64,000 nt of DNA. Source: a virus. The position numbers and the translations under genes are program-made. Location: positions 1 to 64,000 of the IMG/VR virus record IMGVR_UViG_3300016667_000333, one strand, 5' to 3'. Position 1 is the stretch's first letter. Every line of letters starts with the position of its first letter. This document shows, in pieces, positions 887 through 64,000 of the stretch. The notes under the pieces are model-generated. The model made no database searches, was not told the origin of the DNA, and was given only the letters and a program-made list of their open reading frames with translations.

Positions 887-1373
887 TTTCCGCCTTAGAC
901 TGCGCAGGTGCCTTAACTCTGTCTGGTGAGATGGAGTAGAAGGCAAGTATATCGGTGTTCCGTTCATTGAAAAAGTCTAATAATAGTTCTTGTTTAGCTG
1001 AATCTAAGTCTGCAATGTAGTGCCGGATCTTGTTGCGTCTCACGGCGTTAAACTCGTAGTCTCTCCTAACCACCTTTAGGGCGTGGCACACCGTGGCGTG
1101 GTCTTTCTCTACCGTTCGCGCAACCTCTGCAAGGGTCTTGGTGGAACACACCTTGACGGTCGTCATGTACACCTGTCTCGCCAACACCGTGTCTGCGTGT
1201 CGTCTGTCGCTCTTGATTTCACTGGTAGGGACCTTGAAGTGTTTGCTTACTAGTTCAAGTATTTCATTTTCTTGAGGGCTCTCAATCTTGTGTAGGTACT
1301 CGTAAATCTTTGAGAACTCCGCTCTTCTGTGGGTCGGGACCATATCCACTAAATCTTTGAATGTGTATCTCAT
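873..1373 (-). CDS. DnaA C-terminal domain IV-like HTH DNA-binding protein (no AAA+ domain)
   Basis: 166 aa; SDRRHADTVLARQVYMTTVKVCSTKTLAEVARTVEKDHATVCHALKVV matches the Bac_DnaA_C signature (R..v..aRQiaMyL....t..sl.eIg..f.rDHsTVlha.kk). Confidence 0.6.
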   Translation of the reverse strand: MRYTFKDLVDMVPTHRRAEFSKIYEYLHKIESPQENEILELVSKHFKVPTSEIKSDRRHADTVLARQVYMTTVKVCSTKTLAEVARTVEKDHATVCHALKVVRRDYEFNAVRRNKIRHYIADLDSAKQELLLDFFNERNTDILAFYSISPDRVKAPAQSKAENAKG

Positions 1374-1391
1374 GTTCGTTTAGGTTAAGCC

Positions 1392-1424
1392 GTGGCGGGT
1401 TTGCTTGCGTTTATCCCCCGCCAC
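1392..1424 (-). other. GC-rich hairpin between SSB-like gene and DnaA-IV-like gene
   Basis: 8-bp perfect stem GTGGCGGG/CCCGCCAC with 17-nt loop, flanked by direct GGTTAAG repeats; no U-run, so attenuator or processing site rather than a classic terminator. Confidence 0.3.
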
Positions 1425-1437
1425 AGCTTGGTTAAGA

Positions 1438-2073
1438 TTAGAATGGCAATCCGTCGTCGTCTGGATCCTCAACTAACTGCGGGGCAGCATAAGAGTCCAG
1501 CTTCTTTACAGAACTAACGGCCTTGACTTGAGGAAGGAAGATGTCTTTGAGATGCTTCTCAAAGAACTCTTGGCGCTCTGAGTCGTCCCACACAACCTGT
1601 CCCTTTACCTTGATTTGTTTCATCTCAGGCATATTGCCGGGGTTGTCCTTTGTCCAGCCCCACTTGATGTCCTCCTGTCCGTGGCGGAGATACAACATTG
1701 TGCGGGTCTTTCCGTCAATCTCCTTTGACCACGGGGTGAGGGTAATCTCCTTACCGGCGTCGATGTTTGGCATTGACAAGAAGAATCCAGACGAGTAGCG
1801 TGAACTCCATGGCATTTGGATTTGATACTCGTTGTCGCCATCCTTCAGAACGATGCACAACTGGTCTCCATACCCCTGTTCGGATACGCGCTTGAATACG
1901 TCTGTGATGTAACCAGAAAGAGATGCGTAACGCTCCTCGAACCAAACCTTGGTTCCGTCTTTACTGTTACACTTAATTGAGCCAGCTGTTCCCTCAGGAA
2001 CACGCTTGGCAATCTTACCGTTAGAAATACTAAGGTAAGTACGGTTTGATGAACCACCTTGATTTAATCCCAT
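1438..2073 (-). CDS. Single-stranded DNA-binding protein-like
   Basis: 211 aa from ATG 2073. The longer track ORF to 2367 would run through the promoter box and overlap the 3' end of the primase-helicase gene. The C-terminus EDPDDDGLPF is the acidic tip typical of SSBs. The gene lies adjacent to the primase-helicase. Confidence 0.55.
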   Translation of the reverse strand: MGLNQGGSSNRTYLSISNGKIAKRVPEGTAGSIKCNSKDGTKVWFEERYASLSGYITDVFKRVSEQGYGDQLCIVLKDGDNEYQIQMPWSSRYSSGFFLSMPNIDAGKEITLTPWSKEIDGKTRTMLYLRHGQEDIKWGWTKDNPGNMPEMKQIKVKGQVVWDDSERQEFFEKHLKDIFLPQVKAVSSVKKLDSYAAPQLVEDPDDDGLPF

Positions 2074-2105
2074 AGATTTTTTGATTAATTTATTGGTTAT
2101 ATTCG

Positions 2106-2113
2106 CAAATGTA
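2106..2113 (-). promoter_or_regulatory. Candidate -7 promoter box (TACATTTG, minus strand) for SSB-like gene
   Basis: Plus strand caaatgta, 33 nt upstream of ATG 2073. Confidence 0.4.
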
Positions 2114-2152
2114 GCATATATGTTTCTTTTATGCAAGAAAAAAATCGTTAAA

Positions 2153-4081
2153 TTACTCCCAAGCCTCCCTGTGGCCGTTCGGGTGGCCGATTTCCTCGTC
2201 CCATTCTTTGAGTTCCTTAGAGTCTGTCCAGTTACGATTTGGCTTGATTGCCGTTGGTTTTGGCTCCTCAATGGTAGCCTGTACATACTTCCCATCAATA
2301 GCCTGCTGAAGATAGTCCACCCCATCAAACGTAAACCTTCGGGTGTTCCTCTGTAGCTGAAACTCAAAGAAGCCCTTTATACCCACGATCTTTTGTCGGC
2401 GGATCTTCTTACTGTGAAACTCGCAGATAGGGCTTTCTGGGGCCGTCTGAGCGAACGGACGGTGGTATATGAGGATGTTGTCCGCCTTGTTGTTCCACAT
2501 CGCACCGTCTGCAAGGTCAAACACCTCCGGGCATGGGTAGTTGCCGTCGTCACCCTTTCTCATCTTGTGTGGGTGGACCACGATGTCAAAGTACACGTTG
2601 TTCTTCCGTGCAAAACGGGTGCAGTCAGACAAGAAGGTTTCAAGATACTTATCGCTTCGTCCTCCACCCTTTGTGTAGTCATTTGCCATCTGGTTGAACG
2701 GGTCGATGATAACCCGCTCCACTCCGTGCTTAACAATGAGGGTAAGGAATACCTCCTTAACGTATTCGGGGGTAGGGCTTACACTCTTGGGGTACACCAT
2801 GAAGATGTGTTCGCCAATCATCTTGTACACCTTCATGTACATATCGTATGGTGGACGGTTGGGGTTGTTGGGTGTGCAGTCCTTTCCAAAATAAATCTCG
2901 ACAAGGTCATGGTAGAACTGCTCAGCAGGTAATTCTTCAGGCGTGAAAATAGCTACTTTTTCTCCAAATTTCACGATTCTAAATATCATCTCCCACTTCA
3001 TGAACGAAGACTTACCATAGTTTCCTATCCCGGAAACAATTGTTAAATCACCTTTGACCCTCTTGAAGTGTTTGTCAAGCATAGGGACTCCGAGCGGTTG
3101 AGCGGCGCGATATCCGTGCAGGTAAATATCGGAAGCCTTCTCCATAACCTCCTCGGCGTAGATCACGTCCTCCTTCTCCATCTCCTCGAGGTCCTGCTCG
3201 GTAAGTTCAATTTTTACCTCTACTCGGTTACTCTTTGTAACCAACTGGTCTTTGGTAAACTCAGCGGTGTTCCACTGGTTCATATTGGCCCTGTACGCGC
3301 TACGAATAGCCTGTCTGCACTCGCGTTGGCTGAAACTTGCATCAGGCACAACGTAGGTCATCATGAGGTTATAACAGGTCTCCTCAAGCATTCCGAACCG
3401 GCAACAGCTTGCGGCCAACTTGAACACAAAGTGATTCCTCTCCCCTTCACGGAACGCGTCTCCCTTGGATGTCATCCATGTCAACAGGTTGTTAAAAATC
3501 TTATCGTCATCGTTAATCGTCTCTGTGGTTGTCTGTTTGGGCAACCTGCGGTCCTCTTTCTTTACGGGTAACTTAGAGTATACTTCAGCATTTGGGTTAT
3601 AGTACAAATCAGGATCATACGATTCAAAGCAAAGACGGGAAACATTACGGCCAGTCTTGTCAATGTCTGAGAAATCATTCATTAAGGCATCAAAATGCTC
3701 CTTATGCATGGTATTCCATTCAATTTTCACCAAAGCCTTCAGTCCCTTGCCAGATGGCGACACCCAAACAGCCGTTATGTGACTTATACGACACAATTCA
3801 TTTCTTTTTTGGGTGATATTTGGGACATTATCGAAATCAAGTACGATGTACCCAGAGTGTTCGATAAGTTCAGAGTCCTTGCGTTTGTTAAAAAGACCAC
3901 TGAAGCAAACTGCTGGAAGTTTCTTTTTTAACTCATCGGCCTCTTTCTTGGTAATTGGCTTCCCGCGCCTTTTCAACAAGCTCCTTTGATTTTCCAGTCC
4001 GAATTCGTTCAAGTGCGCCCAACACAGTAATTTGGTGTCCTTGCAGGTCATTGAAGTCTTTGTAGATTGAGATTTTACCAT
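2153..4081 (-). CDS. Primase-helicase (AEP/VirE_N-BT4734-like primase domain fused to P-loop helicase)
   Basis: 642 aa. N-terminal motifs YIVLDFDNV, VWVSPSGKGLKALVKI and SRLCFESYDPDLYYN match Bacteroidota VirE_N/BT4734-type primases. These are followed by a PriCT-like segment NHFVFKLAASCCRFG and a C-terminal Walker A GIGNYGKSSF and Walker B VERVIIDPFNQ. Confidence 0.8.
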   Translation of the reverse strand: MVKSQSTKTSMTCKDTKLLCWAHLNEFGLENQRSLLKRRGKPITKKEADELKKKLPAVCFSGLFNKRKDSELIEHSGYIVLDFDNVPNITQKRNELCRISHITAVWVSPSGKGLKALVKIEWNTMHKEHFDALMNDFSDIDKTGRNVSRLCFESYDPDLYYNPNAEVYSKLPVKKEDRRLPKQTTTETINDDDKIFNNLLTWMTSKGDAFREGERNHFVFKLAASCCRFGMLEETCYNLMMTYVVPDASFSQRECRQAIRSAYRANMNQWNTAEFTKDQLVTKSNRVEVKIELTEQDLEEMEKEDVIYAEEVMEKASDIYLHGYRAAQPLGVPMLDKHFKRVKGDLTIVSGIGNYGKSSFMKWEMIFRIVKFGEKVAIFTPEELPAEQFYHDLVEIYFGKDCTPNNPNRPPYDMYMKVYKMIGEHIFMVYPKSVSPTPEYVKEVFLTLIVKHGVERVIIDPFNQMANDYTKGGGRSDKYLETFLSDCTRFARKNNVYFDIVVHPHKMRKGDDGNYPCPEVFDLADGAMWNNKADNILIYHRPFAQTAPESPICEFHSKKIRRQKIVGIKGFFEFQLQRNTRRFTFDGVDYLQQAIDGKYVQATIEEPKPTAIKPNRNWTDSKELKEWDEEIGHPNGHREAWE

Positions 4082-4752
4082 GTGTTGTTGTCATCTTGGA
4101 TAGGTGTTTGTTTTATAGTTTTCGTTTGTGTTTCGTCTTCCCATCTCCTGTCGCGAAGATATCGTACAGGGTCTTTCCAATACTTGGGTTCGCGACCCAA
4201 TTTATGGTTACCCATGCCTTCTACCGCAAGTATGCGGTCCTCAGCAGAGAGTTTGTTCCATACAGTTAAGGTCTGTTTCTTGTCCACCTTCTTGTTGTAT
4301 GCTTGCCAAAAATCCTCGAATGCGTATTTGTATATTATTGTTTCTTTGTTGGTATTTGTTTCTTTATATATATGGAGGTTTTCCGATTCACGGAAATTCC
4401 CGATGTCGGGAAAATCCGATGTCGGGAAATCCGCATCTCGGGAAAGCTGAGGTGCATCATAAACGATGTGATTCCACCCCACCATTCTGTTCGTTGCTGT
4501 ATCTATTTGACGGCAGCTTAGGATGTACCCCTTCTCTTGCAGGGATTTAAACACCCTGTCCACTGCGTTTTTCGCATCTGGCATTTGATTGTAAAGATTC
4601 TTTTTGTAAAGAACCCAGTTCTCTGGTAGCGAAAGAAGGAAGCACAACATCCCCTTTTCTTCCATAGTCAAATCTCTTGACTGCGAGATTTCGTTTGGGA
4701 TAATAGCAAAGTCATGCTTGCGTTTCCCCTTAACAATTTGTCCTGTATTCAT
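4075..4752 (-). CDS. Replication initiator / replisome-organiser-like HTH protein
   Basis: 225 aa. N-terminal FAIIPNEISQSRDLTMEEKGMLCFLLSLPENW is a winged-helix pattern of phage/plasmid initiators. The C-terminal FEDFWQAYNKKVDKK...RYLRDRRWEDE box is common in phage replication proteins. The gene overlaps the primase-helicase gene by 7 nt. Confidence 0.5.
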   Translation of the reverse strand: MNTGQIVKGKRKHDFAIIPNEISQSRDLTMEEKGMLCFLLSLPENWVLYKKNLYNQMPDAKNAVDRVFKSLQEKGYILSCRQIDTATNRMVGWNHIVYDAPQLSRDADFPTSDFPDIGNFRESENLHIYKETNTNKETIIYKYAFEDFWQAYNKKVDKKQTLTVWNKLSAEDRILAVEGMGNHKLGREPKYWKDPVRYLRDRRWEDETQTKTIKQTPIQDDNNTW

Positions 4753-4757
4753 AAAAT

Positions 4758-4788
4758 AAAAAAAGCCCGCAAGAGCAACTTCGCGGGC
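4758..4788 (-). terminator. Intrinsic terminator (minus strand)
   Basis: Stem GCCCGC/GCGGGC (4765..4770 / 4783..4788) followed on the minus strand by T7 (plus A-run 4758..4764); a second hairpin CTAGGC-atccgaa-GCCTAG lies at 4819..4837. Confidence 0.55.
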
Positions 4789-4905
4789 CTAATTTGGTAA
4801 GTAAAAATAGTACTTAACCTAGGCATCCGAAGCCTAGTTTGCTGTTGCTCTATAACAAACTACGCTTGGAATATTTGGCAAACATAAAACAACCACGCGA
4901 GGTTG

Positions 4906-5097
4906 TCAAGGATTTTCTTCATTATTTTTTATGTGCCACGTCTCACACTCCCAACACATATACACTTGCTGGTCATAATCACAGTGTTCCTGAGCCTCTT
5001 TACGAGTCTTGTAACATCTTTTGCCACAGCCATATATGGAGTTCTTGATCATGAACGTAAGGCAGGATACAACTAATAGAATTGAAACGATAAACAT
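4906..5097 (-). CDS. Small membrane-anchored Cys-rich protein
   Basis: 63 aa; N-terminal TM FIVSILLVVSCLTFMI then CGKRC...CDYDQQVYMCWEC; promoter box 4 nt upstream of the ATG. Confidence 0.35.
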   Translation of the reverse strand: MFIVSILLVVSCLTFMIKNSIYGCGKRCYKTRKEAQEHCDYDQQVYMCWECETWHIKNNEENP

Positions 5098-5101
5098 AGC
5101 G

Positions 5102-5109
5102 CAAATTTA
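5102..5109 (-). promoter_or_regulatory. Candidate -7 promoter box (TAAATTTG, minus strand)
   Basis: Plus strand caaattta; only 4 nt from ATG 5097, implying a leaderless or near-leaderless mRNA. Confidence 0.45.
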
Positions 5110-5161
5110 CTTTGTTTAGTTCTATTTCCAAGCAAGAAGTTGACACTGTGTTGTTTTTGAG

Positions 5162-5169
5162 TATATTTG
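5162..5169 (+). promoter_or_regulatory. Candidate -7 promoter box (TATATTTG) starting the plus-strand block
   Basis: Fits TAnnTTTG; 4 nt upstream of ATG 5174; mirror image of the 5102..5109 box. Confidence 0.45.
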
Positions 5170-5173
5170 CAGC

Positions 5174-5389
5174 ATGAGTAATTTATTTCCACCCGACCAC
5201 CGGGTATTTATTGAGATAGAAAAACAGACAAGTAAGCAGATGGACGCCGTGATAACAAAGGTTGGCAACTTTTGCGACCTTAAAGTAGGGCAGCGAGTTT
5301 GCATTGTCGGAAAGGTAGACAAAGTTGAACTGCAAGACATTACGGAATACTCTGTACACGAGCGACACATAGTCCTTATATATGAATAA
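5174..5389 (+). CDS. Hypothetical protein
   Basis: 71-aa ORF, first gene of plus block; weak GroES-like pattern (KVGQRVCIVGKVDKVEL..EYSVHERHIVLIYE), insufficient for a call. Confidence 0.4.
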   Translation: MSNLFPPDHRVFIEIEKQTSKQMDAVITKVGNFCDLKVGQRVCIVGKVDKVELQDITEYSVHERHIVLIYE

Positions 5390-5684
5390 CCTACAAAACT
5401 GGAACAGGGCTATCCTACTTCTCAACACCATGATTGATGAGAAGATTGAGATATATGAGGTCATGCGGATATTTACCCCTATGGCCACCAAGTCTCGCCG
5501 CAAACTTTTGTACTGCGACCCGGCAATTACATCAGAGGATCTTGACCAGGTCGAGAAGGCGATAAGAAGATACAGAGAGACTCTTAATGAGATCTCAAAA
5601 ACAAAGGTGGAGACGCGTATTAAGCGTTCATCATTCTTCAAAACACTGCAAGAGCATTATGATCAGAACAAAGACAAAAAATAA
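5382..5684 (+). CDS. Hypothetical protein
   Basis: 100-aa ORF overlapping the upstream stop by 8 nt; helical, charged. Confidence 0.4.
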   Translation: MNNLQNWNRAILLLNTMIDEKIEIYEVMRIFTPMATKSRRKLLYCDPAITSEDLDQVEKAIRRYRETLNEISKTKVETRIKRSSFFKTLQEHYDQNKDKK

Positions 5685-5916
5685 CTACCTCAAAATCATA
5701 GAGGTATACGAATACTACATCCGCCGGGAGAAGGTTGATCCGGTAAAAGTTGAGGGCTTGATGTCTGATTGGGATGCTGTTATGGTGTTTGGAAGTTATT
5801 CATCGTTACGCAGGTGTGTGAATAAACTCAAGAAGAAGATTCCAATTGGCAAGAAAAACTTTGACAAACAGAAGCAGGTACTTGAAATTTACGAAAAAAA
5901 ATTAGCAAACAAATGA
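5659..5916 (+). CDS. Hypothetical protein
   Basis: 85 aa from ATG 5659 (track ORF begins at 5587 and would overlap the upstream gene by 98 nt). Confidence 0.35.
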   Translation: MIRTKTKNNYLKIIEVYEYYIRREKVDPVKVEGLMSDWDAVMVFGSYSSLRRCVNKLKKKIPIGKKNFDKQKQVLEIYEKKLANK

Positions 5917-6716
5917 ATCTGAGCGGGATAGACCTAAGTAAAATTCGTTTGATAAACGGCGAGTGTATTATTGAGCTTCATTCCTTGACAGAGGACGAGA
6001 TTGACTTTAATGGCGGCAAACTCAAGATTGTAAACAAGGTGAAGACATATGTTTCGGAGGTAGACCATAATTACATGTTTGACCTTGTTGACGGTATAAA
6101 AAAGTCGAGGTACAAGGACAAGAAATTAATAGCTGAATACAATAGGATTCATGCCGAGTCACAACAAGAGGCGGATCCAGACAAAGAAAACATTCAAGAC
6201 AAGCAGGCCGTTAGGCGAGGCAAGATTATAAAAATTGCAGAGATTGATCCAGGCCAGCAGGGGTGGGACTATGAGTGCGAATTTGATGGCGTTGAAGGCG
6301 ACGAGGTTTGGTTTGATGCAACTTTTACCAGAGAGATGATAACCGAGGGAGAGGGTGGGTGTATAGTAGACGGAAAAATATACTTGACAATTTCCAAAAA
6401 GTCTATTTACGCGGCCAAGCGCGGTGATGAAATAGTTAGTCTCAATGGTTACATCATAGGCAAGTTGCTTGGCAACGAAAGAAAGATAGGGTCGATACAC
6501 ATGGTAGACAACGATCTTACACTAGTCGAAGTTGTTGTCCCGCCCGCAAGAACACCTGTTTTTACAAGGCCGGATGTTTGGTCGAACAACGAGGTCAAGA
6601 AGGGTGACATTGTATGCGTAAGGAGGGCTTATGCAACAAAGCTAGACCCCACGCTTGCCAACACAACAGAATATGTTAGATTCCAGTCAAGGGTAATCCT
6701 TGCATACCAAAGATGA
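5913..6716 (+). CDS. Hypothetical protein
   Basis: 267-aa ORF, ATGA-coupled on both sides; no motif recognised. Confidence 0.5.
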   Translation: MNLSGIDLSKIRLINGECIIELHSLTEDEIDFNGGKLKIVNKVKTYVSEVDHNYMFDLVDGIKKSRYKDKKLIAEYNRIHAESQQEADPDKENIQDKQAVRRGKIIKIAEIDPGQQGWDYECEFDGVEGDEVWFDATFTREMITEGEGGCIVDGKIYLTISKKSIYAAKRGDEIVSLNGYIIGKLLGNERKIGSIHMVDNDLTLVEVVVPPARTPVFTRPDVWSNNEVKKGDIVCVRRAYATKLDPTLANTTEYVRFQSRVILAYQR

Positions 6717-7366
6717 TAAAACTAGACTTTAGTAAAATATCCTACAACATTGAAGGCATCCCGGATGACGAGGCGGTAGTATACCGGTTCTCGGACCTGG
6801 CCAGTCAAGCCCATATTCTCGACAGGTCTGACGACCTTCCAGAGGGGGTTAGCGCCGACAAGGTTGTTCGATATCTCATATATATGTTCGCTCCAGGTAC
6901 ACCCGTTAAGGATGCGTATCCGGACATCAACCAGCGCAAACGATATACTTTGAACAAGCTGAACATCATGGTTGATGACACGGATTCGGAAGATGGGTAC
7001 GCCCAGCTCTGCATGATGAATGTGGACTGGGCGGTGGAGCGTTACATCACGTTTACACGCCTACAATGCTCGGAGGACTACTCAATTATGAGTACCGCCG
7101 ACATCCGAATAGCCGCCCTGCAACGTGCGCTCTTGACCCAGCCGGTGGACAGGTCCAATGACGACAAGAACTTCCAGGCGGGTCTTGAGAGTTGGAGGCA
7201 GACCCTTGTGGATGCTCGTAGCAGGATAATGAATGATGAGGTTAGCATCACACTACAGAAAGCAATTACCTTCTCTGTACGCGCTGAGAACCTTGGCATA
7301 CAACCAGAACACTATGCGCGGGTATGGCGTGAAAAGAAAGAAATATTCCCGGAGGTTATACCATAA
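6713..7366 (+). CDS. Hypothetical protein; small terminase candidate by position only
   Basis: 217 aa, immediately upstream of the large terminase; no motif recognised. Confidence 0.3.
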   Translation: MIKLDFSKISYNIEGIPDDEAVVYRFSDLASQAHILDRSDDLPEGVSADKVVRYLIYMFAPGTPVKDAYPDINQRKRYTLNKLNIMVDDTDSEDGYAQLCMMNVDWAVERYITFTRLQCSEDYSIMSTADIRIAALQRALLTQPVDRSNDDKNFQAGLESWRQTLVDARSRIMNDEVSITLQKAITFSVRAENLGIQPEHYARVWREKKEIFPEVIP

Positions 7367-7377
7367 AGTATTATACC

Positions 7378-9840
7378 ATGAAGTACGAATACTTAGAAGA
7401 GGATGATTTTGTTTCCTTTCACGAGGATGACGATGAGTTGGATACGATCCGTATTCCACTTCCGCGCCTTGAGAAGTGGTACTCTCACCATCTAAAACGA
7501 GAGGTTACCAGGGAAGAGGCGCTTACATACGTGGACGGTTATGGTCTTGCTCCAAAGGACCAAAAGTTTCAATACCAGGAGGTTCCGGAAAAGATAAAAT
7601 TGATTTACGAGGTTGTGTTCAATAAAAAACACGCAACCAACAAGTCTAAGTACAAGGAGGTAGGAGACGTCCGTCTTGAGGACATCTACGAGGAAATTGA
7701 GTCCAATCAAAAGTACTACGCCATGGAGATTGAGTGGATAAAGCTCCAAATAAAGCGCAGATACGTAGGTTACTGGTGTTTCATTAAAGGAAAGCCGGTA
7801 TATTTAAATGGAGCCAATTATTTCTTCCTAAACTTCTGGACAGTAAAGAACTTTGGTAAGAACAACAACCGACCCGACTACAGGGACTACCAGCGCAAGA
7901 TGTTTCATCTGTTCATGTACGCATATACCACAGAGGATGCGTTCTATAAACACAAGGTGTTGTACCGGGAAGATGGAGTGGTAAAAACAAAGTACTCAAA
8001 CCAGGACGTGAAGAACGTGGTGGAGGATATGAACGAGATGGGTGTAGAGTACTTCATGGAGCCAAACGTAAACGTGACCGTTGGAAAAGGTAAGCGAACT
8101 GTTCATGGAATTAACTTTGTTTCTGGACGACGTATCGCCAAGACAGCTATTGCTTGTTGCTTCTGCACGTGGGGAACCCTCAACATGCCCGACCAGACTT
8201 TTATCATCCAGGCGATGAACGAGGACCAGGCCGTCAACAAGATATTCATCAAACAAATTCAAACACCCGTAAGCAAACTTCCCTTCTTTTTTCGTCCTCA
8301 TTATCGTGGACGAATAGAGGCAAAGGAGGGTTTGCGTTTCCAGTATGAAGGAGCAATCGCATCAGCCGCAAGGGCAGGAATCGTCCCAGAACAAATGGAG
8401 TGCTTCATCACGCCACTCCCGTCGACGGAGAAAGCGGCGGATGGAGAGGCTGAAATCGCATTTGTCTACCGTGACGAGCCAGCGAAGAAAACGGATGCGA
8501 AGGCGGCGGACCAAAACATACCGACGTGGTGGTACAACACGATGAAACCAGCGATTGAGCGAGGAGAAAACATTCGAGGGTTCTGCATTATGCCTTCTAC
8601 GGTGGGTGACATGGACACAGGGGGTGGAGCGCAGTTCTTTGACATTGCTAACGACTCTCACTTCTCTGACAGAAACGAGAACGGAACTACTCCATCAGGA
8701 CTCATCAACTTTTTCTTACCGGGTTACTACGCGGTAGAGGGATACATTGACGAGTACGGGGCAAGCATTATTGATGACCCCAAGGAACCGGTAATGTCGA
8801 ACGAGGGCAAGTGGATTACCAGAGGGGCAAAGTCATACCTGCTAAACCAAGCAGACTACTTTGAACGTAAACGCGAGTGGCAGAAGTTAATCAAGTTGCA
8901 GCAAAACTTCCCAATGAGTTGGAAGCAAGCGTTTGCTGTAATACCAAAGGACATGGGTATGCCTATTGAGAAGATGCGTGACCGTATCTCGGAACTGAAG
9001 TTTTCTCGCACACCAATTAGTACAAAGATAAATTTTAAGTGGATTGGTGACAAGTTTGGAGGAGATGTTTATGTGGACAATGACCCCAAGGGAAGCTGGA
9101 CCATGACCTATCTTCCGCCACAAGAACAAAGAAACAGACGAACGGTTGTTACGGCCGAAGAGGGTTACATCCCTCCAAAAGAAAAAGGTCCGATTTACGC
9201 TCCCGATCCGTCGGTGATGAACAAGTACTTCCTCTGCTGTGACCCGGTTAAGTTTCACAAGCGAAATACAGTTGGTAAGAAGAAGTCGAATGCGGCAGCG
9301 GCTGTTTTTTACAAAAGAGACAGCCAGGTAGACCCCGATACCAAGCCAAGGAGTGAATGGGTAAGCAACGACTGGATTCTGGTATATAACAGACAGACAG
9401 AAGACAAGTCGGAGTACCACGAGGAGTGGCTGAAGGCTGCTATATTCCTTGGTGCATACGTATACCCGGAATGGCCCGATGGAGAAGCCTTGGTGGAATA
9501 CTTTAGGGACAACGGTTTCGATGGATACCTTTTGAAAGACATTGGATCAGAGGGTAAGCAAGACCCGCGCCCGGGCGTATGGGCAGGAGAAGCCGAGAAG
9601 AACGAAATGGCTGGAGACATCATGACGTTTTTTAACAACAATGTTAAATATGTGAAAATGTGGGAGATCATTGAGGAGTGGAGTCAGATGAGGGGTCTTG
9701 ATGACTTGACTAACCATGACTTGTGTGCCGCAACAGGGTGGTGCATGAGGGCTATAAAGAGCAGAATGCCAGATCTTTACAAGGAAGTTTATCAACCGAT
9801 AGAGATACAAGGAGGCTTCGCAATGTTTGACGTAGAATGA
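7378..9840 (+). CDS. Terminase large subunit
   Basis: 820 aa; deviant Walker A VSGRRIAKTAIA, Walker B AFVYRDEP, coupling motif IMPSTVG, nuclease-domain Asp in FLCCDPVKF; precedes the portal candidate. Confidence 0.7.
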   Translation: MKYEYLEEDDFVSFHEDDDELDTIRIPLPRLEKWYSHHLKREVTREEALTYVDGYGLAPKDQKFQYQEVPEKIKLIYEVVFNKKHATNKSKYKEVGDVRLEDIYEEIESNQKYYAMEIEWIKLQIKRRYVGYWCFIKGKPVYLNGANYFFLNFWTVKNFGKNNNRPDYRDYQRKMFHLFMYAYTTEDAFYKHKVLYREDGVVKTKYSNQDVKNVVEDMNEMGVEYFMEPNVNVTVGKGKRTVHGINFVSGRRIAKTAIACCFCTWGTLNMPDQTFIIQAMNEDQAVNKIFIKQIQTPVSKLPFFFRPHYRGRIEAKEGLRFQYEGAIASAARAGIVPEQMECFITPLPSTEKAADGEAEIAFVYRDEPAKKTDAKAADQNIPTWWYNTMKPAIERGENIRGFCIMPSTVGDMDTGGGAQFFDIANDSHFSDRNENGTTPSGLINFFLPGYYAVEGYIDEYGASIIDDPKEPVMSNEGKWITRGAKSYLLNQADYFERKREWQKLIKLQQNFPMSWKQAFAVIPKDMGMPIEKMRDRISELKFSRTPISTKINFKWIGDKFGGDVYVDNDPKGSWTMTYLPPQEQRNRRTVVTAEEGYIPPKEKGPIYAPDPSVMNKYFLCCDPVKFHKRNTVGKKKSNAAAAVFYKRDSQVDPDTKPRSEWVSNDWILVYNRQTEDKSEYHEEWLKAAIFLGAYVYPEWPDGEALVEYFRDNGFDGYLLKDIGSEGKQDPRPGVWAGEAEKNEMAGDIMTFFNNNVKYVKMWEIIEEWSQMRGLDDLTNHDLCAATGWCMRAIKSRMPDLYKEVYQPIEIQGGFAMFDVE

Positions 9841-61283: not shown

Positions 61284-61586
61284 TTATTGTTTCCAAAATA
61301 GATTGCTGTTCATGTTGACGGCTACCTTGCCGGCATTGGTACACTCGTACCATACGCCTTCATGCTTCTCGTACCATTCACCCTCGTCTTCGTAGTCCCA
61401 TTCGGTGTAGCAGTACGCACCCTCGTCGTATGCCTCGTCGAGGTCAGCGTAGCCCTGCTCTAGGGCGAAGCGCTCAGCGTCTTCCTTGTTGATGAAATAC
61501 ATGAGGTTCTCTTCGAACAGGTAGCCCTCGTTCATGCCCTCGTTTGTTGCGCTGCATATGCGAGCGAATTTCTCAGTTGTTTCCAT
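61284..61586 (-). CDS. Highly acidic small protein
   Basis: 100 aa from ATG 61586; D/E/Y/W-rich (YTEWDYEDEGEWYEKHEG). Confidence 0.45.
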   Translation of the reverse strand: METTEKFARICSATNEGMNEGYLFEENLMYFINKEDAERFALEQGYADLDEAYDEGAYCYTEWDYEDEGEWYEKHEGVWYECTNAGKVAVNMNSNLFWKQ

Positions 61587-61833
61587 TGTGCTGTCGTGTT
61601 GATTGTTGGTATTGATATGAATTGATGAGCGTTTGTAGCGGGGCAACTTCGACCCCTATGTCTTCCCCGTTCTCTAGGGCTGCGTTGATGTCATCGTAGC
61701 TTTCGATACGGGCTTCCGTGCCGTCATCGTATAGGCGGTAGATTGTAAGTGCGCCCGATGACCATAGTTCCTTGGCTGAGTCGGTGACGATGAGCCACAC
61801 GAAGCCGTCTGCTGTGATTTTGATGTTGTCCAT
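61573..61833 (-). CDS. Hypothetical protein
   Basis: 86-aa ORF; CA-rich leader directly after element E1. Confidence 0.45.
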   Translation of the reverse strand: MDNIKITADGFVWLIVTDSAKELWSSGALTIYRLYDDGTEARIESYDDINAALENGEDIGVEVAPLQTLINSYQYQQSTRQHNGNN

Positions 61834-61855
61834 GTTGTTGTGTTGTATTGATTAG

Positions 61856-61899
61856 AGACAGGGGCGGGAGTCGAACCCGCCCTAGCACCATGCCTGCCT
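61856..61899 (-). ncRNA. tRNA-minihelix-like structured element E1
   Basis: Minus-sense AGGCAGG-CATGGTGCTAG-GGCGGG-TTCGACT-CCCGCC-CCTGTCT, then CTAA. The outer stem is 7 bp (one G-U), the inner stem 6 bp, and the loop is T-loop-like. It lies 8 nt after the stop of 61908..62831. Confidence 0.5.
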
Positions 61900-61907
61900 G
61901 CGTGCCG

Positions 61908-62831
61908 TTAGGCTACGATTTTCGCTAGGATGTCGAAGGCCTGCGCGTCCATTGCGCCTGCCTGTCCTGTCATCTTAGCCTCGATACGGCCGTTCTCGCG
62001 GTTAGGAGCGGAGGCCTTGTGGGTGGTGTAGTGTGTAACCCCACTCATCAGTCCCCACAGCGAGCCGCCCTTGTATGAGGTCTCGCGGCGTATGCTGTCG
62101 AGCAGTTCGCTTGCAATATTGAACTTGCGTGCGCTGTGGTCGGCGCGTATCGACTTCTCGGTCTTGGTGATGTCGACGTCGGTCAACTGCTGCACCACGC
62201 TGCGCACAATCTCGGGCGTCATCGGGGCGTTGGCCATCTTGAAGAAGGTGTCGTAGAGGCTCTCGTCGGCCTTCACTATGCCGAGAATTTGCTGCTTAGC
62301 TGCCTCGATACGTTCGCGCATGCTAGAGGTGTGTCGCACGCGGCTCATGGCCTTGTCACGGGCTGCGCGGTAGAAGGTGTTCTGACAGCTAATGGTGTAG
62401 CCTAGCGACCCGAAGCAAACGCTGCTGCTGCCGTCGAATGAGTTGAGGGCGGTCACGTACTTTTCTACGCGGTCGTTGTTGTCACCGATACCGGTAACGC
62501 TGCCCGCTGACAATTGCAGGTATACCTTCTTGCCGCCGTTCAGAGCGCCGCCCTTGTGTATGCGGTAGCCAAACTCGCCTGCAATGGCCTCGCATAGCTC
62601 AGCGAGCTCTTCATTCTGAAAGACCGCGTACTGCTCAGACATTACGCCTAGGATAGCGCCGTTGTCGGCCCGTTGGTTGGCCCATGCGCTGTCGACAGGC
62701 GTGCCGTCGGGTGTGTAGAGTTGTACCTTGTTTACGTGCCAATCGAGGCCTGTAGCTTGGAGGGTTTCGATTGTCTTAGCACCTGTGGTGATGTTTGACA
62801 GCATGCTGTCGAGGTTGAAATTGTTGTTCAT
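61908..62831 (-). CDS. DUF932 / TIGR03299-type phage-plasmid protein
   Basis: 307 aa; GLDWHVNKVQLY, QRADNGAILGVMSEQYAVFQNEE, GGKKVYLQL, ALNSFDGSSSVCFGSLGYTISCQNTF and RVRHTS follow the DUF932 family pattern. Confidence 0.7.
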   Translation of the reverse strand: MNNNFNLDSMLSNITTGAKTIETLQATGLDWHVNKVQLYTPDGTPVDSAWANQRADNGAILGVMSEQYAVFQNEELAELCEAIAGEFGYRIHKGGALNGGKKVYLQLSAGSVTGIGDNNDRVEKYVTALNSFDGSSSVCFGSLGYTISCQNTFYRAARDKAMSRVRHTSSMRERIEAAKQQILGIVKADESLYDTFFKMANAPMTPEIVRSVVQQLTDVDITKTEKSIRADHSARKFNIASELLDSIRRETSYKGGSLWGLMSGVTHYTTHKASAPNRENGRIEAKMTGQAGAMDAQAFDILAKIVA

Positions 62832-62862
62832 AATGTGTTGAAATAAATTGTTATAAAATTAG

Positions 62863-62906
62863 AGACAGGGAGGGGAAACGAGCCCCTCCGAGCACCATGC
62901 CTGTCT
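62863..62906 (-). ncRNA. tRNA-minihelix-like structured element E2
   Basis: Minus-sense AGACAGG-CATGGTGCTCG-GAGGGG-CTCGTTT-CCCCTC-CCTGTCT, then CTAA. It has the same 44-nt architecture as E1, with two compensated stem changes. It starts 1 nt after the stop of 62908..63231. Confidence 0.5.
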
Positions 62907-62907
62907 A

Positions 62908-63231
62908 TTATAGCCCCTTCATGAGTAAGCGGTAGCCTTCCTGCCCTTCGTCTTGCTTACGTGTAGAAGCGGCCTCCATTGCCCTTCTTTCTAGCGTGCG
63001 CCACATATGTGCTAGCTGCCCATTGTCCTGTTCAGTCTCAGCGCCCCATGTCATTACATACGAGCCCCTGTTGCCCACTATTACAATCATTTGCAGGGGC
63101 AAATCACCTTGCCACTCGGCCAACTTCACGTTGTAGCTTATTTCCAAGCCGTTCGCGAAGTAGATTGTCTTGTTTTTGAAGTCTGAAACAGGCATTTTTG
63201 CTAGCTGTTGGATGAACTCTTGTGTTGTCAT
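62908..63231 (-). CDS. Hypothetical protein, first ORF of the early block
   Basis: 107 aa from ATG 63231 (CA-rich leader); the longer track ORF to 63345 would read through element E3. Confidence 0.45.
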   Translation of the reverse strand: MTTQEFIQQLAKMPVSDFKNKTIYFANGLEISYNVKLAEWQGDLPLQMIVIVGNRGSYVMTWGAETEQDNGQLAHMWRTLERRAMEAASTRKQDEGQEGYRLLMKGL

Positions 63232-63254
63232 GTTGTGTTGTGTATTAAGTTTAG

Positions 63255-63313
63255 AACAACGCGGGGACTCGAACCCCGTACACACCTTGCGGAGTGTAGC
63301 GCCTGCCGTTGCT
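63255..63313 (-). ncRNA. tRNA-like three-way-junction element E3
   Basis: Minus-sense AGCAACG-GCAGGCGC-[TACACTCC GCAA GGTGTGTA]-[CGGGG TTCGAGT CCCCG]-CGTTGTT, then CTAA. It has a T-arm with a canonical T-loop, a GNRA-capped hairpin and a 7-bp acceptor-like stem. There is no D-arm or 7-nt anticodon loop. Confidence 0.5.
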
Positions 63314-63721
63314 ATAGTTGCCATTCTACCCACATGCACCTTCACATGCGGTAGAAATCGGTTGCAGTAAACAAAGAACTAGTGTTGTTAACGAGCCGCG
63401 ACTCGAGTCCTATTGACCCTAGACACCCTTGCACTCAGTAGGCTTGCGCTTACCTTCTCAGTTAGTCTAGAGCGCGGATATGAGAACCACCACCCGCTTA
63501 ACCTCATTCCTGTTGTGGGTGCTTTTCACACCCCTCAAACGCTGTAGAACCATTGTCCCTGTTTGATGGCACAAAGATGGGGGTCGTTTGGTGGTGACAT
63601 GCCCGACATTAACATTTCAGCAACACTTTTTATGTCATAACACAATGTTTTTAAGCTAACTTGTTGAAACTCAGTGTACAAAAAAGTTAAGGGTTTATTT
63701 GGATATGGGGCTGTTATACCC

Positions 63722-63729
63722 TATATTTG
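63722..63729 (+). promoter_or_regulatory. Candidate -7 promoter box (TATATTTG) pointing rightwards
   Basis: Fits TAnnTTTG; followed by near-palindrome GGGGAA-a-TTCCCC (63729..63741); no convincing ORF downstream. Confidence 0.35.
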
Positions 63730-64000
63730 GGGAAATTCCCCACAACTTATTGGTTTTCATCGTGTTACATGGGCTCAGCGCCGGAATACCTCGCTGCCTC
63801 TATAGATCCACATAGAACACTAGGTAAGGGACACACAGCGCCAATAGGTACAGGAGCACATAAGACACTCGTGCACGCCCGCACATTAGGCCTCCAAACC
63901 TTGGGTTGCCCCTACCAAAAGAAACCCGCCCTCTGAACCCCGCGAAAACACACGGAAATTGCTTTAAATCGACTTTCTCGCCTGTGGTGGTATCTACATA

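Follow-up and report, generated by a model that had tools for sequence, protein, structure and literature searches.

The 64,000-nt stretch of viral DNA analyzed here (IMG/VR virus record IMGVR_UViG_3300016667_000333, positions 1 to 64,000; hereafter, the window) contains three compact elements, E1, E2, and E3, between and ahead of the first genes of its early region. They belong to a large family of transfer RNA (tRNA)-like elements (TLEs), which are found only in viral and metagenomic DNA. TLEs fold on the mRNA-sense strand, lie between co-directional small early genes, and are replaced by hammerhead ribozymes in the same intergenic slots of related viruses. By sequence and predicted fold, a TLE corresponds to the acceptor/T-arm "top half" of a tRNA without the anticodon arm. 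We think it probable that TLEs are tRNA-mimic processing signals, which would be cut by host tRNA-end nucleases, most likely by RNase Z at the 3' border. The three window elements are given below; scores are from CM R1, a covariance model built from seven TLE copies.

E1, 61852..61899 including the tail (61856-61899 without it), minus strand: TLE, from sequence reading and ViennaRNA folding; CM R1 score of 67.8 bits.
E2, 62859..62906 including the tail (62863-62906 without it), minus strand: TLE, from sequence reading and ViennaRNA folding; CM R1 score of 72 bits, with covarying orthologues in the same slot of relatives L003-L011.
E3, 63251..63313, minus strand: longer TLE upstream of the first early gene, from sequence reading; orthologues with compensated T stems.

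E1 and E2 follow a common plan, in which a 7-bp acceptor-like stem encloses an 11-nt linker (CAUGGUGCUNG) and a 6-bp T-like arm and is followed by the tail CUAA. On the minus strand, E1 reads AGGCAGG-CAUGGUGCUAG-GGCGGG-UUCGACU-CCCGCC-CCUGUCU followed by CUAA (61899 to 61852), and E2 reads AGACAGG-CAUGGUGCUCG-GAGGGG-CUCGUUU-CCCCUC-CCUGUCU followed by CUAA (62906 to 62859). This reading bears out the original prediction, made from the window sequence alone, that the two share one architecture in the minus sense; they are copies of a single element. It also agrees with the prediction that both inner-stem differences are compensated (G-C to A-U and C-G to G-C). The outer stems differ once, giving G3·U in E1 and A3-U in E2. 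Exact copies of the 13-mer CAGGCATGGTGCT and the 11-mer CCTGTCTCTAA occur within the 64 kb only at E1 and E2, the remaining matches in the window having two to three mismatches, which is chance level. ViennaRNA predicts the nested two-helix fold for both elements, at -20 to -22 kcal/mol. Because the single-sequence folding z-scores are modest (-0.97 for E1 and -2.02 for E2), significance was taken from covariation in relatives and not from energy.

E3 consists of an acceptor stem (AGCAACG/CGUUGUU), a 9-nt spacer, a spacer hairpin (ACAC-UCCGCAAG-GUGU, held in a 28-nt insert), and a canonical 5-bp T-arm (CGGGG-UUCGAGU-CCCCG) followed by C-UAA. Its helices thus add up to 7 + 5 = 12 bp, as in tRNA. 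Orthologues of E3 carry compensated T stems (CUAGG/CCUAG, GGAGG/CCUCC, and GGGGG/CCCCC) together with covarying spacer hairpins. The T-loop is canonical in E1, as had been proposed, and in E3, but not in E2, where the loop CUCGUUU lacks the equivalents of U54 and A58. A 7-bp acceptor stacked on a T-arm with a 7-nt UUCRANY loop is therefore fully present in E1 and E3, and E2 has the helices only. The claim that neither E1 nor E2 is followed by a U-run stands for E1 and fails for E2, in which UUUU begins 4 nt after the stem. This run is not conserved in orthologues, and a terminator scan flags neither element, in keeping with the proposal that they are not classic terminators.

A search of relatives with a covariance model, as the original prediction had suggested, retrieved further covarying copies, with compensatory changes in up to 11 of the 13 pairs. 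In the window and viral contigs, CM R1 gave 44 matches (26 distinct), with 99.7% of the cells paired and double changes in 9 of 13 pairs. None of 500 shuffles of the 26 distinct TLEs was as good, and slid controls were 53-61% paired. Further viral contigs added 16 matches. At least 80 metagenome loci contributed at least 62 matches, of which at least 48 are distinct, with 98.0% of the cells paired, double changes in 11 of 13 pairs, and a covariation score of 0.805 versus 0.189 for shuffles; these figures, and the pooled counts below that include them, are among the matches listed. Compensated stems also distinguish the slot variants of relatives that share the DUF932 gene described below (AGCUAGG/CCUAGCU, AAGCAGG/CCUGCUU, and AAGCGGG/CCCGCUU). 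The pooled set of at least 64 distinct sequences comprises 775 Watson-Crick cells, 16 G·U, and 3 A·C. This excess of G·U over A·C places the selection for the fold on the mRNA-sense strand, which confirms what had been concluded from E1 and E2. The likeness to an acceptor/T-arm minihelix, also noted at the outset, is strongly supported by the same covarying homologues.

Across 185,579 bacterial and archaeal species (one genome each), 40 pattern matches were obtained, approximately the number calculated for chance; not one of them fits the covariance model or is a tRNA where the pattern matched. Cultured phages queried by BLAST with a TLE carry no TLE, only the 3' halves (T-arm and acceptor) of phage tRNA genes being matched. 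One viral pattern match, in contig L052, was discarded as a genuine tRNA array. In Acinetobacter phage ZZ1 (NC_018087.3, 72405-72436) and related T4-like phages, an unannotated stretch shows 87.5% identity to the TLE T-arm, acceptor 3' strand, and tail, and may be an unannotated tRNA-like element.

The outer helix of the family is 7 bp long, its first pair being A-U in most copies and unpaired in approximately 11 of 64. The linker (Y-W-U-G-G-W-G-C-A-W-G, 11-13 nt) has a nearly invariant UGG, and its GG appears to be placed like G18-G19 of the D-loop, which form the tRNA elbow. The inner helix has 5-6 bp, including two invariant loop-closing G-C pairs, and the coaxial stack spans 12-13 bp. The 7-nt loop reads UUCGAnU in 71 of the 84 unique genomic contexts. 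The nucleotide after the stem is an unpaired C. Next to it stands U in all three window copies (C-UAA) and in 50 of the 73 family copies, and A in 14 of the 73. No TLE encodes CCA. Two additional pairings were considered and rejected, namely a conserved third helix in the linker (GCA-UGG-UGC or CAUGG-UGG-CCAUG), which is not supported, given the mismatches in the CCACG and CCUUG variants, and an alifold long-range pairing of the E3 3' arm with the 5' region of the leader upstream of it, which is poorly conserved compared with the local acceptor stem. The conserved CAUGG of the linker holds an ATG (61891, minus strand, and equivalents) that opens spurious open reading frames (ORFs), such as the 55-amino-acid ORF at 61724-61891, and could mislead gene callers.

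Three subclasses can be distinguished. Subclass a is the window type, with 7 + 6 bp and the tail CUAA. Subclass b has the form AACAGGA-CUUGGAGCAAG-GCGGG-UUCGAUU-CCCGC-UCCUGUU, with the tail CUCU and 7 + 5 = 12 bp. Subclass c, the E3 type, has the extra covarying spacer hairpin and always lies ahead of the first gene. Subclass b TLEs are always followed, before the next gene, by a conserved module of approximately 70 nt with three hairpins (CUGC-UCAC-GCAG, CUCG-UAAUGCAA-CGAG, and GGGAGGGG...CCCUCCC), found at L020 8832-8905, L034 (reverse complement) ~4174-4250, L036 4473-4550, L033 1331-1345 onward, and in other relatives. The module matches nothing in Rfam and may represent a further structured RNA or a ribozyme candidate.

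Rfam assigns the elements to no family, returning nothing at gathering thresholds in the window and 11 relatives. As the original prediction expected, ARAGORN calls neither a tRNA nor a transfer-messenger RNA (tmRNA) gene in the window. The tRNA model RF00005 has no match in the window at the gathering threshold, nor in 61500-64000 at E ≤ 10, and in place of the D and anticodon arms, E1 and E2 have only the 11-nt linker. With the tmRNA model (RF00023), only the 17-nt T-arm of E1 aligns, at 16.6 bits versus a gathering threshold of 47. The mascRNA-menRNA model (RF01684; gathering threshold, 42.5 bits) gives 18.2 bits for E3 and 30.7 bits for its orthologue in L011, and Ocean-VII (RF03092; gathering threshold, 53.5 bits) gives 14.8 bits (E = 0.56) on the antisense strand of E2.

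The placement of the elements was examined relative to the first three early genes of the window:

Early gene 1, 62908..63231, minus strand: 107 amino acids, from the ORF list; no Pfam family in a Pfam search.
Early gene 2, 61908..62831, minus strand: DUF932 protein of 307 amino acids, between E2 and E1 (Pfam PF06067, E = 4.7e-30).
Early gene 3, 61573..61833, minus strand: 86 amino acids, from the ORF list and map.

E2 starts 1 nt past the stop codon of gene 1, and E1 starts 8 nt past that of the DUF932 gene, so that the predicted location just behind stop codons holds for both. The ATG of gene 3 lies 22 nt beyond the E1 acceptor stem, and E3 (63313 to 63251) is 23 nt upstream of the gene 1 ATG. 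The same arrangement recurs throughout the family. An upstream ORF of at least 40 amino acids ends -26 to +7 nt from the element start in 69 of the 73 unique copies that could be evaluated, and 46 of these 69 ORFs have a stop codon that overlaps the TLE 5' arm, typically as U|AA-ACAGG. A downstream ORF starts behind 71 of the 73 copies, at a median distance of 29 nt. TLEs are always intergenic and co-oriented with the small early genes, which is the punctuation-type placement of a tRNA-shaped structure between co-directional ORFs. In L007, the order is ORF, TLE, ORF, TLE, several ORFs, TLE, DUF932, TLE. The 78-kb metagenomic contig L138 (Ga0209835_1000051; reverse complement, 1075-7179) has seven TLEs among approximately 25 small co-directional ORFs in 6 kb. 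The stems in this contig are very diverse, and the tails are CAAA, CAAU, or ACAA, not CUAA.

In several relatives, a different RNA occupies these slots. The position behind the DUF932 gene of L001, L005, L006, and L009 holds a type I hammerhead, GGUAAA-CUGAUGAG-(stem II)-CGAAAC-(stem III)-GUC^UUUACC. In a hand-curated alignment of eight variants, all catalytic-core nucleotides are kept, 98.6% of the positions across the three helices are paired, and seven pairs are compensated. The score against the Rfam model RAGATH-1-hammerhead (34.1 bits, E = 3e-4) is below the gathering threshold of 56.3 because the sequence lacks a 5' accessory hairpin. L005 and L006 have the hammerhead where L007, L008, and L011 have a TLE, with the orthologous DUF932 gene on one side and an 81-amino-acid gene (70% identity) on the other. 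The alignment of L005 with L007 and L011 is clean up to the DUF932 stop codon and resumes at the CA-rich leader of the 81-amino-acid gene, so that only the element differs. At a second slot, ahead of the orthologous "MKKRF" gene, L003 has E3 where L004 and L005 have a hammerhead. Both element types are mixed in many contigs. The window itself has no hammerhead core motif with stem II on either strand and no Rfam match to a hammerhead.

In the nearest cultured relatives, the Flavobacterium elemo phages, the early operon contains two hammerheads, and CM R1 finds no TLE in the elemoA early region. In Flavobacterium phage vB_FspP_elemoA_7-9A (L215, NC_055852.1), these are as follows:

Type III-like hammerhead, 7210-7266: 14 nt upstream of the first early gene; Hammerhead_3, 36.3 bits (gathering threshold, 48.5).
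Type I hammerhead, ~9005-9062: between gp67 and gp69, beneath gp68, an antisense 35-amino-acid "hypothetical protein".

Neither is annotated, and the gp68 coding sequence is probably a misannotation. In Pelagibacter phages, a 27-nt exact match to the hammerhead core and stem II (AAACUGAUGAGGCUUCAAUAGCCGAAA) lies inside an annotated hypothetical protein (e.g., MT375528.1, 38222-38248); the same hammerhead type is therefore present in unrelated marine phages.

The processing of polycistronic mRNA by bacterial or phage ribozymes has been put forward as a suggestion only, and the role of the many self-cleaving ribozymes, hammerheads included, near phage genes is an acknowledged open question (PMC6765202). 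The hammerheads in the same slots of relatives argue that TLEs are cut sites dividing the early multigene transcript. The punctuation of the early polycistron, one of several functions considered in the original prediction, is thus the option favored by the comparative data, i.e., the strictly intergenic position, the common orientation, and the hammerhead swap.

Under the mechanism that we propose, E1, E2, and E3 would act as RNA elements inside the early polycistronic transcript, with the short UGG-containing linker standing in for the D-loop. They would recruit host tRNA end-processing endonucleases, and the transcript would be cut at each element. The likeliest enzyme would be RNase Z, cutting just 3' of the unpaired C after the acceptor stem, and RNase P may cut the 5' border as well. 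The predicted RNase Z-type cuts fall between 61855 and 61854 for E1 and between 62862 and 62861 for E2; the predicted RNase P-type cut of E1 falls between 61900 and 61899. The upstream mRNA would keep its stop codon and end in a stable tRNA-like cap, and the downstream mRNA would begin with a short unstructured CA-rich leader. In relatives, the same job would be done at the same slots autonomously by the type I hammerhead, which likewise cuts at its 3' edge.

Several points favor a 3'-side cut. A 5' cut, such as canonical RNase P cleavage, would make non-stop mRNAs of the two thirds of upstream ORFs whose stop codon overlaps the 5' arm; the replacing hammerhead cleaves at its 3' end (GUC^UUUACC); and that hammerhead cut leaves the stop codon and a structured 3' end upstream and the CA-rich leader downstream. 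An RNase Z-type cut is favored because of the missing CCA and the C-U(AA) that follows the stem in the clade of the window. It is further favored by the behavior of Bacillus subtilis RNase Z, which is stimulated ~200-fold when a U lies no more than 2 nt from the discriminator (PMC10100781), a rule that comes from B. subtilis and not from Bacteroidota. Likewise, the CCA-less pre-tRNA-Ser of phage T4 has UAA in place of CCA (PMC11143913). Genuine tRNAs of the lineage also lack an encoded CCA, namely tRNA-Cys(aca) at L020 4120-4194 and tRNA-Ala(ggc) at L215 15779-15855 (ARAGORN calls); their maturation therefore requires 3' endonucleolytic trimming and CCA addition by the host. Judging from these genes, such a pathway is already in use by these phages.

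Several points weigh against this reading. The phage and its host are uncultured, and the occurrence of cleavage, the enzyme, and the effects on mRNA stability and translation are what we infer from comparing sequences. RNase Z generally works best on 5'-matured substrates, and here the 5' extension would be a whole mRNA. The C-U tail is not universal, C-A taking its place in the copies counted above. A U precedes the element in 40 of 73 copies, which would suit 5' cuts by RNase P, since U is the preferred -1 base of bacterial RNase P. The E1 and E2 stack has 13 bp (7 + 6) compared to the canonical 12, and with the first pair unpaired in some copies, the helix register is ambiguous. In its loop, E2 departs from the canonical T-loop. 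Lastly, because the window has no hammerhead, the equivalence of TLEs and hammerheads rests entirely on relatives.

It is unlikely, though likelier than the other alternatives, that the elements are passive stability elements, whose fold blocks 3'-to-5' exonucleases or protects a 5' end on fragments made by unrelated nucleases, without recognition by tRNA-processing enzymes. The stable G+C-rich stacked helices directly past stop codons would serve this purpose, and hammerhead cleavage, too, would give the upstream fragment a structured 3' end. However, a plain hairpin would be enough, and neither the T-loop, UGG linker, 7 + 5/6-bp geometry, and C(U) tail nor the replacement by an element that is defined by cleavage is explained. 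The 3'-end stabilizer role raised in the original prediction is compatible with punctuation and probably part of the same mechanism.

A product that acts in trans is rather improbable. The excised ~45-nt RNA would engage a host tRNA-binding factor as its decoy, inhibitor, or substrate; candidates are the CCA-adding enzyme, modification enzymes, synthetases, and toxins or defense nucleases that target the acceptor stem. Several copies per genome are present in the earliest transcript, and they mimic the tRNA elbow and acceptor. In E1, the G·U pair (61897/61858) occupies acceptor position 3:70, the identity pair of alanyl-tRNA synthetase (AlaRS), but as G3·U occurs in only 4 of 62 family members, it is probably incidental. 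The stems vary freely, with no sequence-specific target evident, and the hammerhead takes the same slot yet gives no tRNA-like RNA. E1 and E2 cannot decoy anticodon nucleases, since they have no anticodon arm. The suggestion of a tRNA-enzyme decoy is hence unsupported.

We regard a role at the DNA level as very improbable. TLEs would then be hairpin promoters for a phage or virion RNA polymerase, as in N4, or tRNA-derived recombination or integration sites. Each copy does lie 13-36 nt upstream of an early-gene ATG, and several giant ORFs with no assigned function could hide a divergent RNA polymerase, although PHROGs detected none. The 16:3 ratio of G·U to A·C, the precise T-loop/elbow mimicry, the overlap with stop codons inside a co-directional operon, and the interchange with an RNA-only ribozyme all speak for RNA. 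The 3' halves resemble tRNA 3' halves in the manner of phage attachment (attP) sites; an integration site was nonetheless rejected, as both acceptor arms are present and covary, unlike in att sites. Terminators or attenuators between the early genes, whether factor-independent or unusual, are barely credible: the G+C-rich hairpins past stop codons and the UUUU after E2 would fit, but the negative scan and the unconserved U-run do not match an intrinsic terminator, the nested outer helix and tRNA features would be unexplained, and stopping after genes 1 and 2 would silence the rest of the ~30-gene operon.

The early region of the window is ordered as promoter region, leader, E3, gene 1, E2, DUF932, E1, and approximately 30 tightly packed small genes, among which no additional TLE was found beyond E1. 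Two features precede E3:

Leader, 63314..63565, minus strand: conserved, apparently non-coding, ~250 nt, ending in E3, from the relatives' alignment and folds; its start is placed from the putative -7 box.
Putative -7 promoter box, 63572..63579, minus strand: CATCTTTG, family consensus yATnTTTG; tentative, from a conserved column block in the relatives' alignment.

The leader is kept in six to seven relatives, with hairpin-sized indels and a minimum free energy z-score of -1.84, and Rfam matches nothing in 63314-63565. The leader may represent an early non-coding RNA, with E3 setting its 3' end. The -7 box is, in our estimation, akin to the Bacteroidetes TAnnTTTG motif.

The DUF932 protein, used as a query, retrieved 11 IMG/VR viral contigs with 86-98% identity and genomes of ~70 kb. 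GenBank phages gave no nucleotide match to the 2.5-kb element region. A Bacteroidota host is plausible, because the only matches of the terminase and portal proteins are to Flavobacteriia podophages (Cellulophaga, Flavobacterium "elemo", Tenacibaculum, and Maribacter), at 21-24% identity. No RNase, ligase, CCA-adding enzyme, or RNA polymerase was recognized with Pfam and PHROGs in 16 mid-size and giant ORFs of the window.

Taken further, we lean towards the view that virus-specific minimal tRNA mimics serve as host-nuclease-dependent punctuation in phage early operons and are evolutionarily interchangeable with hammerheads. Mitochondrial tRNA punctuation would thereby gain its first counterpart in a bacterial virus, including the overlap of stop codons with the 5' edge of the element, and the exchange would provide, for the first time, comparative evidence that the purpose of phage hammerheads is to cut polycistronic mRNAs. 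The replacement of one element by the other between the same genes amounts to a natural "swap experiment" that points to mRNA segmentation as the selected function. If true, tRNA punctuation, known from organelles and a few eukaryotic long non-coding RNAs (lncRNAs) and viruses, extends to bacteriophages. Translation in Bacteroidota is independent of Shine-Dalgarno sequences, which may make the architecture of the mRNA 5' end important, and a compact element of 44-48 nt could be a portable processing signal in these bacteria. The comparison also flags misannotation in cultured phage genomes, such as the coding sequence over the elemoA hammerhead, and the cultured elemo phages offer an immediate test bed. 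As a bolder extension, released or retained mini-tRNAs might be CCA-tagged or otherwise engage the host tRNA machinery.

We rate the TLE family as undescribed and the kind of mechanism as known; functionally, the family resembles mitochondrial punctuation and mascRNA, but it is a member of none of the systems compared below. The statement in the original prediction that no phage element of this layout had been described agrees with the Rfam and literature searches; the latter, whose coverage is incomplete, turned up no account of phages with tRNA-like punctuation or of an exchange between TLEs and hammerheads.

The tRNA-like domain of tmRNA and synthetic acceptor/T-arm minihelices come close in structure, with an acceptor stacked on a T-arm, a stem-less D-loop analogue, and no anticodon arm. 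The T-arm of E1 equals that of the tmRNA model exactly (GCGGGUUCGAcUCCCGC), and synthetic minihelices are used as substrates of RNase P, RNase Z, the CCA-adding enzyme, and AlaRS. In contrast to tmRNA, E1 and E2 are one contiguous 44-nt unit and not the two ends of a 360-nt RNA, and they lack an encoded CCA, a conserved G3·U70, a tag ORF, and pseudoknots. The mascRNA/MEN-beta modules of MALAT1 and NEAT1 are likewise non-decoding tRNA mimics in a longer RNA, where they recruit RNase P and RNase Z and set RNA ends. They belong, however, to eukaryotic nuclear lncRNAs and keep an anticodon-like arm, which E1 and E2 do not have, and because the Rfam scores are below 42.5 bits, TLEs are not mascRNA homologues.

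Among viruses, the herpesvirus MHV68 makes tRNA-like TMER transcripts that are cut by tRNase Z. Phage T4 relies on a host RNase Z-type activity (RNase BN/Z) for its CCA-less tRNA-Pro/Ser precursor, the UAA trailer of which equals the C-UAA tail of the window (PMC11143913). The T4 tRNAs and MHV68 TMERs are real tRNAs or transcript-starting tRNA-like units and not minimal intergenic elements. The hammerheads of phage and prophage operons (RAGATH-1-hammerhead and Hammerhead_3) share neither sequence nor structural homology with TLEs and are self-cleaving, whereas TLEs would need host enzymes. Within this phage lineage, hammerheads fill the slots that TLEs fill elsewhere, and the cultured elemo phages have them in the equivalent early operon; they are the apparent functional alternative to TLEs.

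The mitochondrial system differs in that its tRNAs are functional, whereas TLEs have neither an anticodon arm nor a D stem and receive no ARAGORN call. TLEs also lie in a phage early operon with a probable Bacteroidota host and are interchangeable with hammerheads. Mitochondrial tRNAs are excised by RNase P and RNase Z/ELAC2, and the general tRNA-end nucleases are presumed to process TLEs as well. In both systems, tRNA shapes stand between the ORFs of one transcript, often with no spacer and with the stop codon overlapping their 5' end, as in 46 of 69 cases for TLEs.

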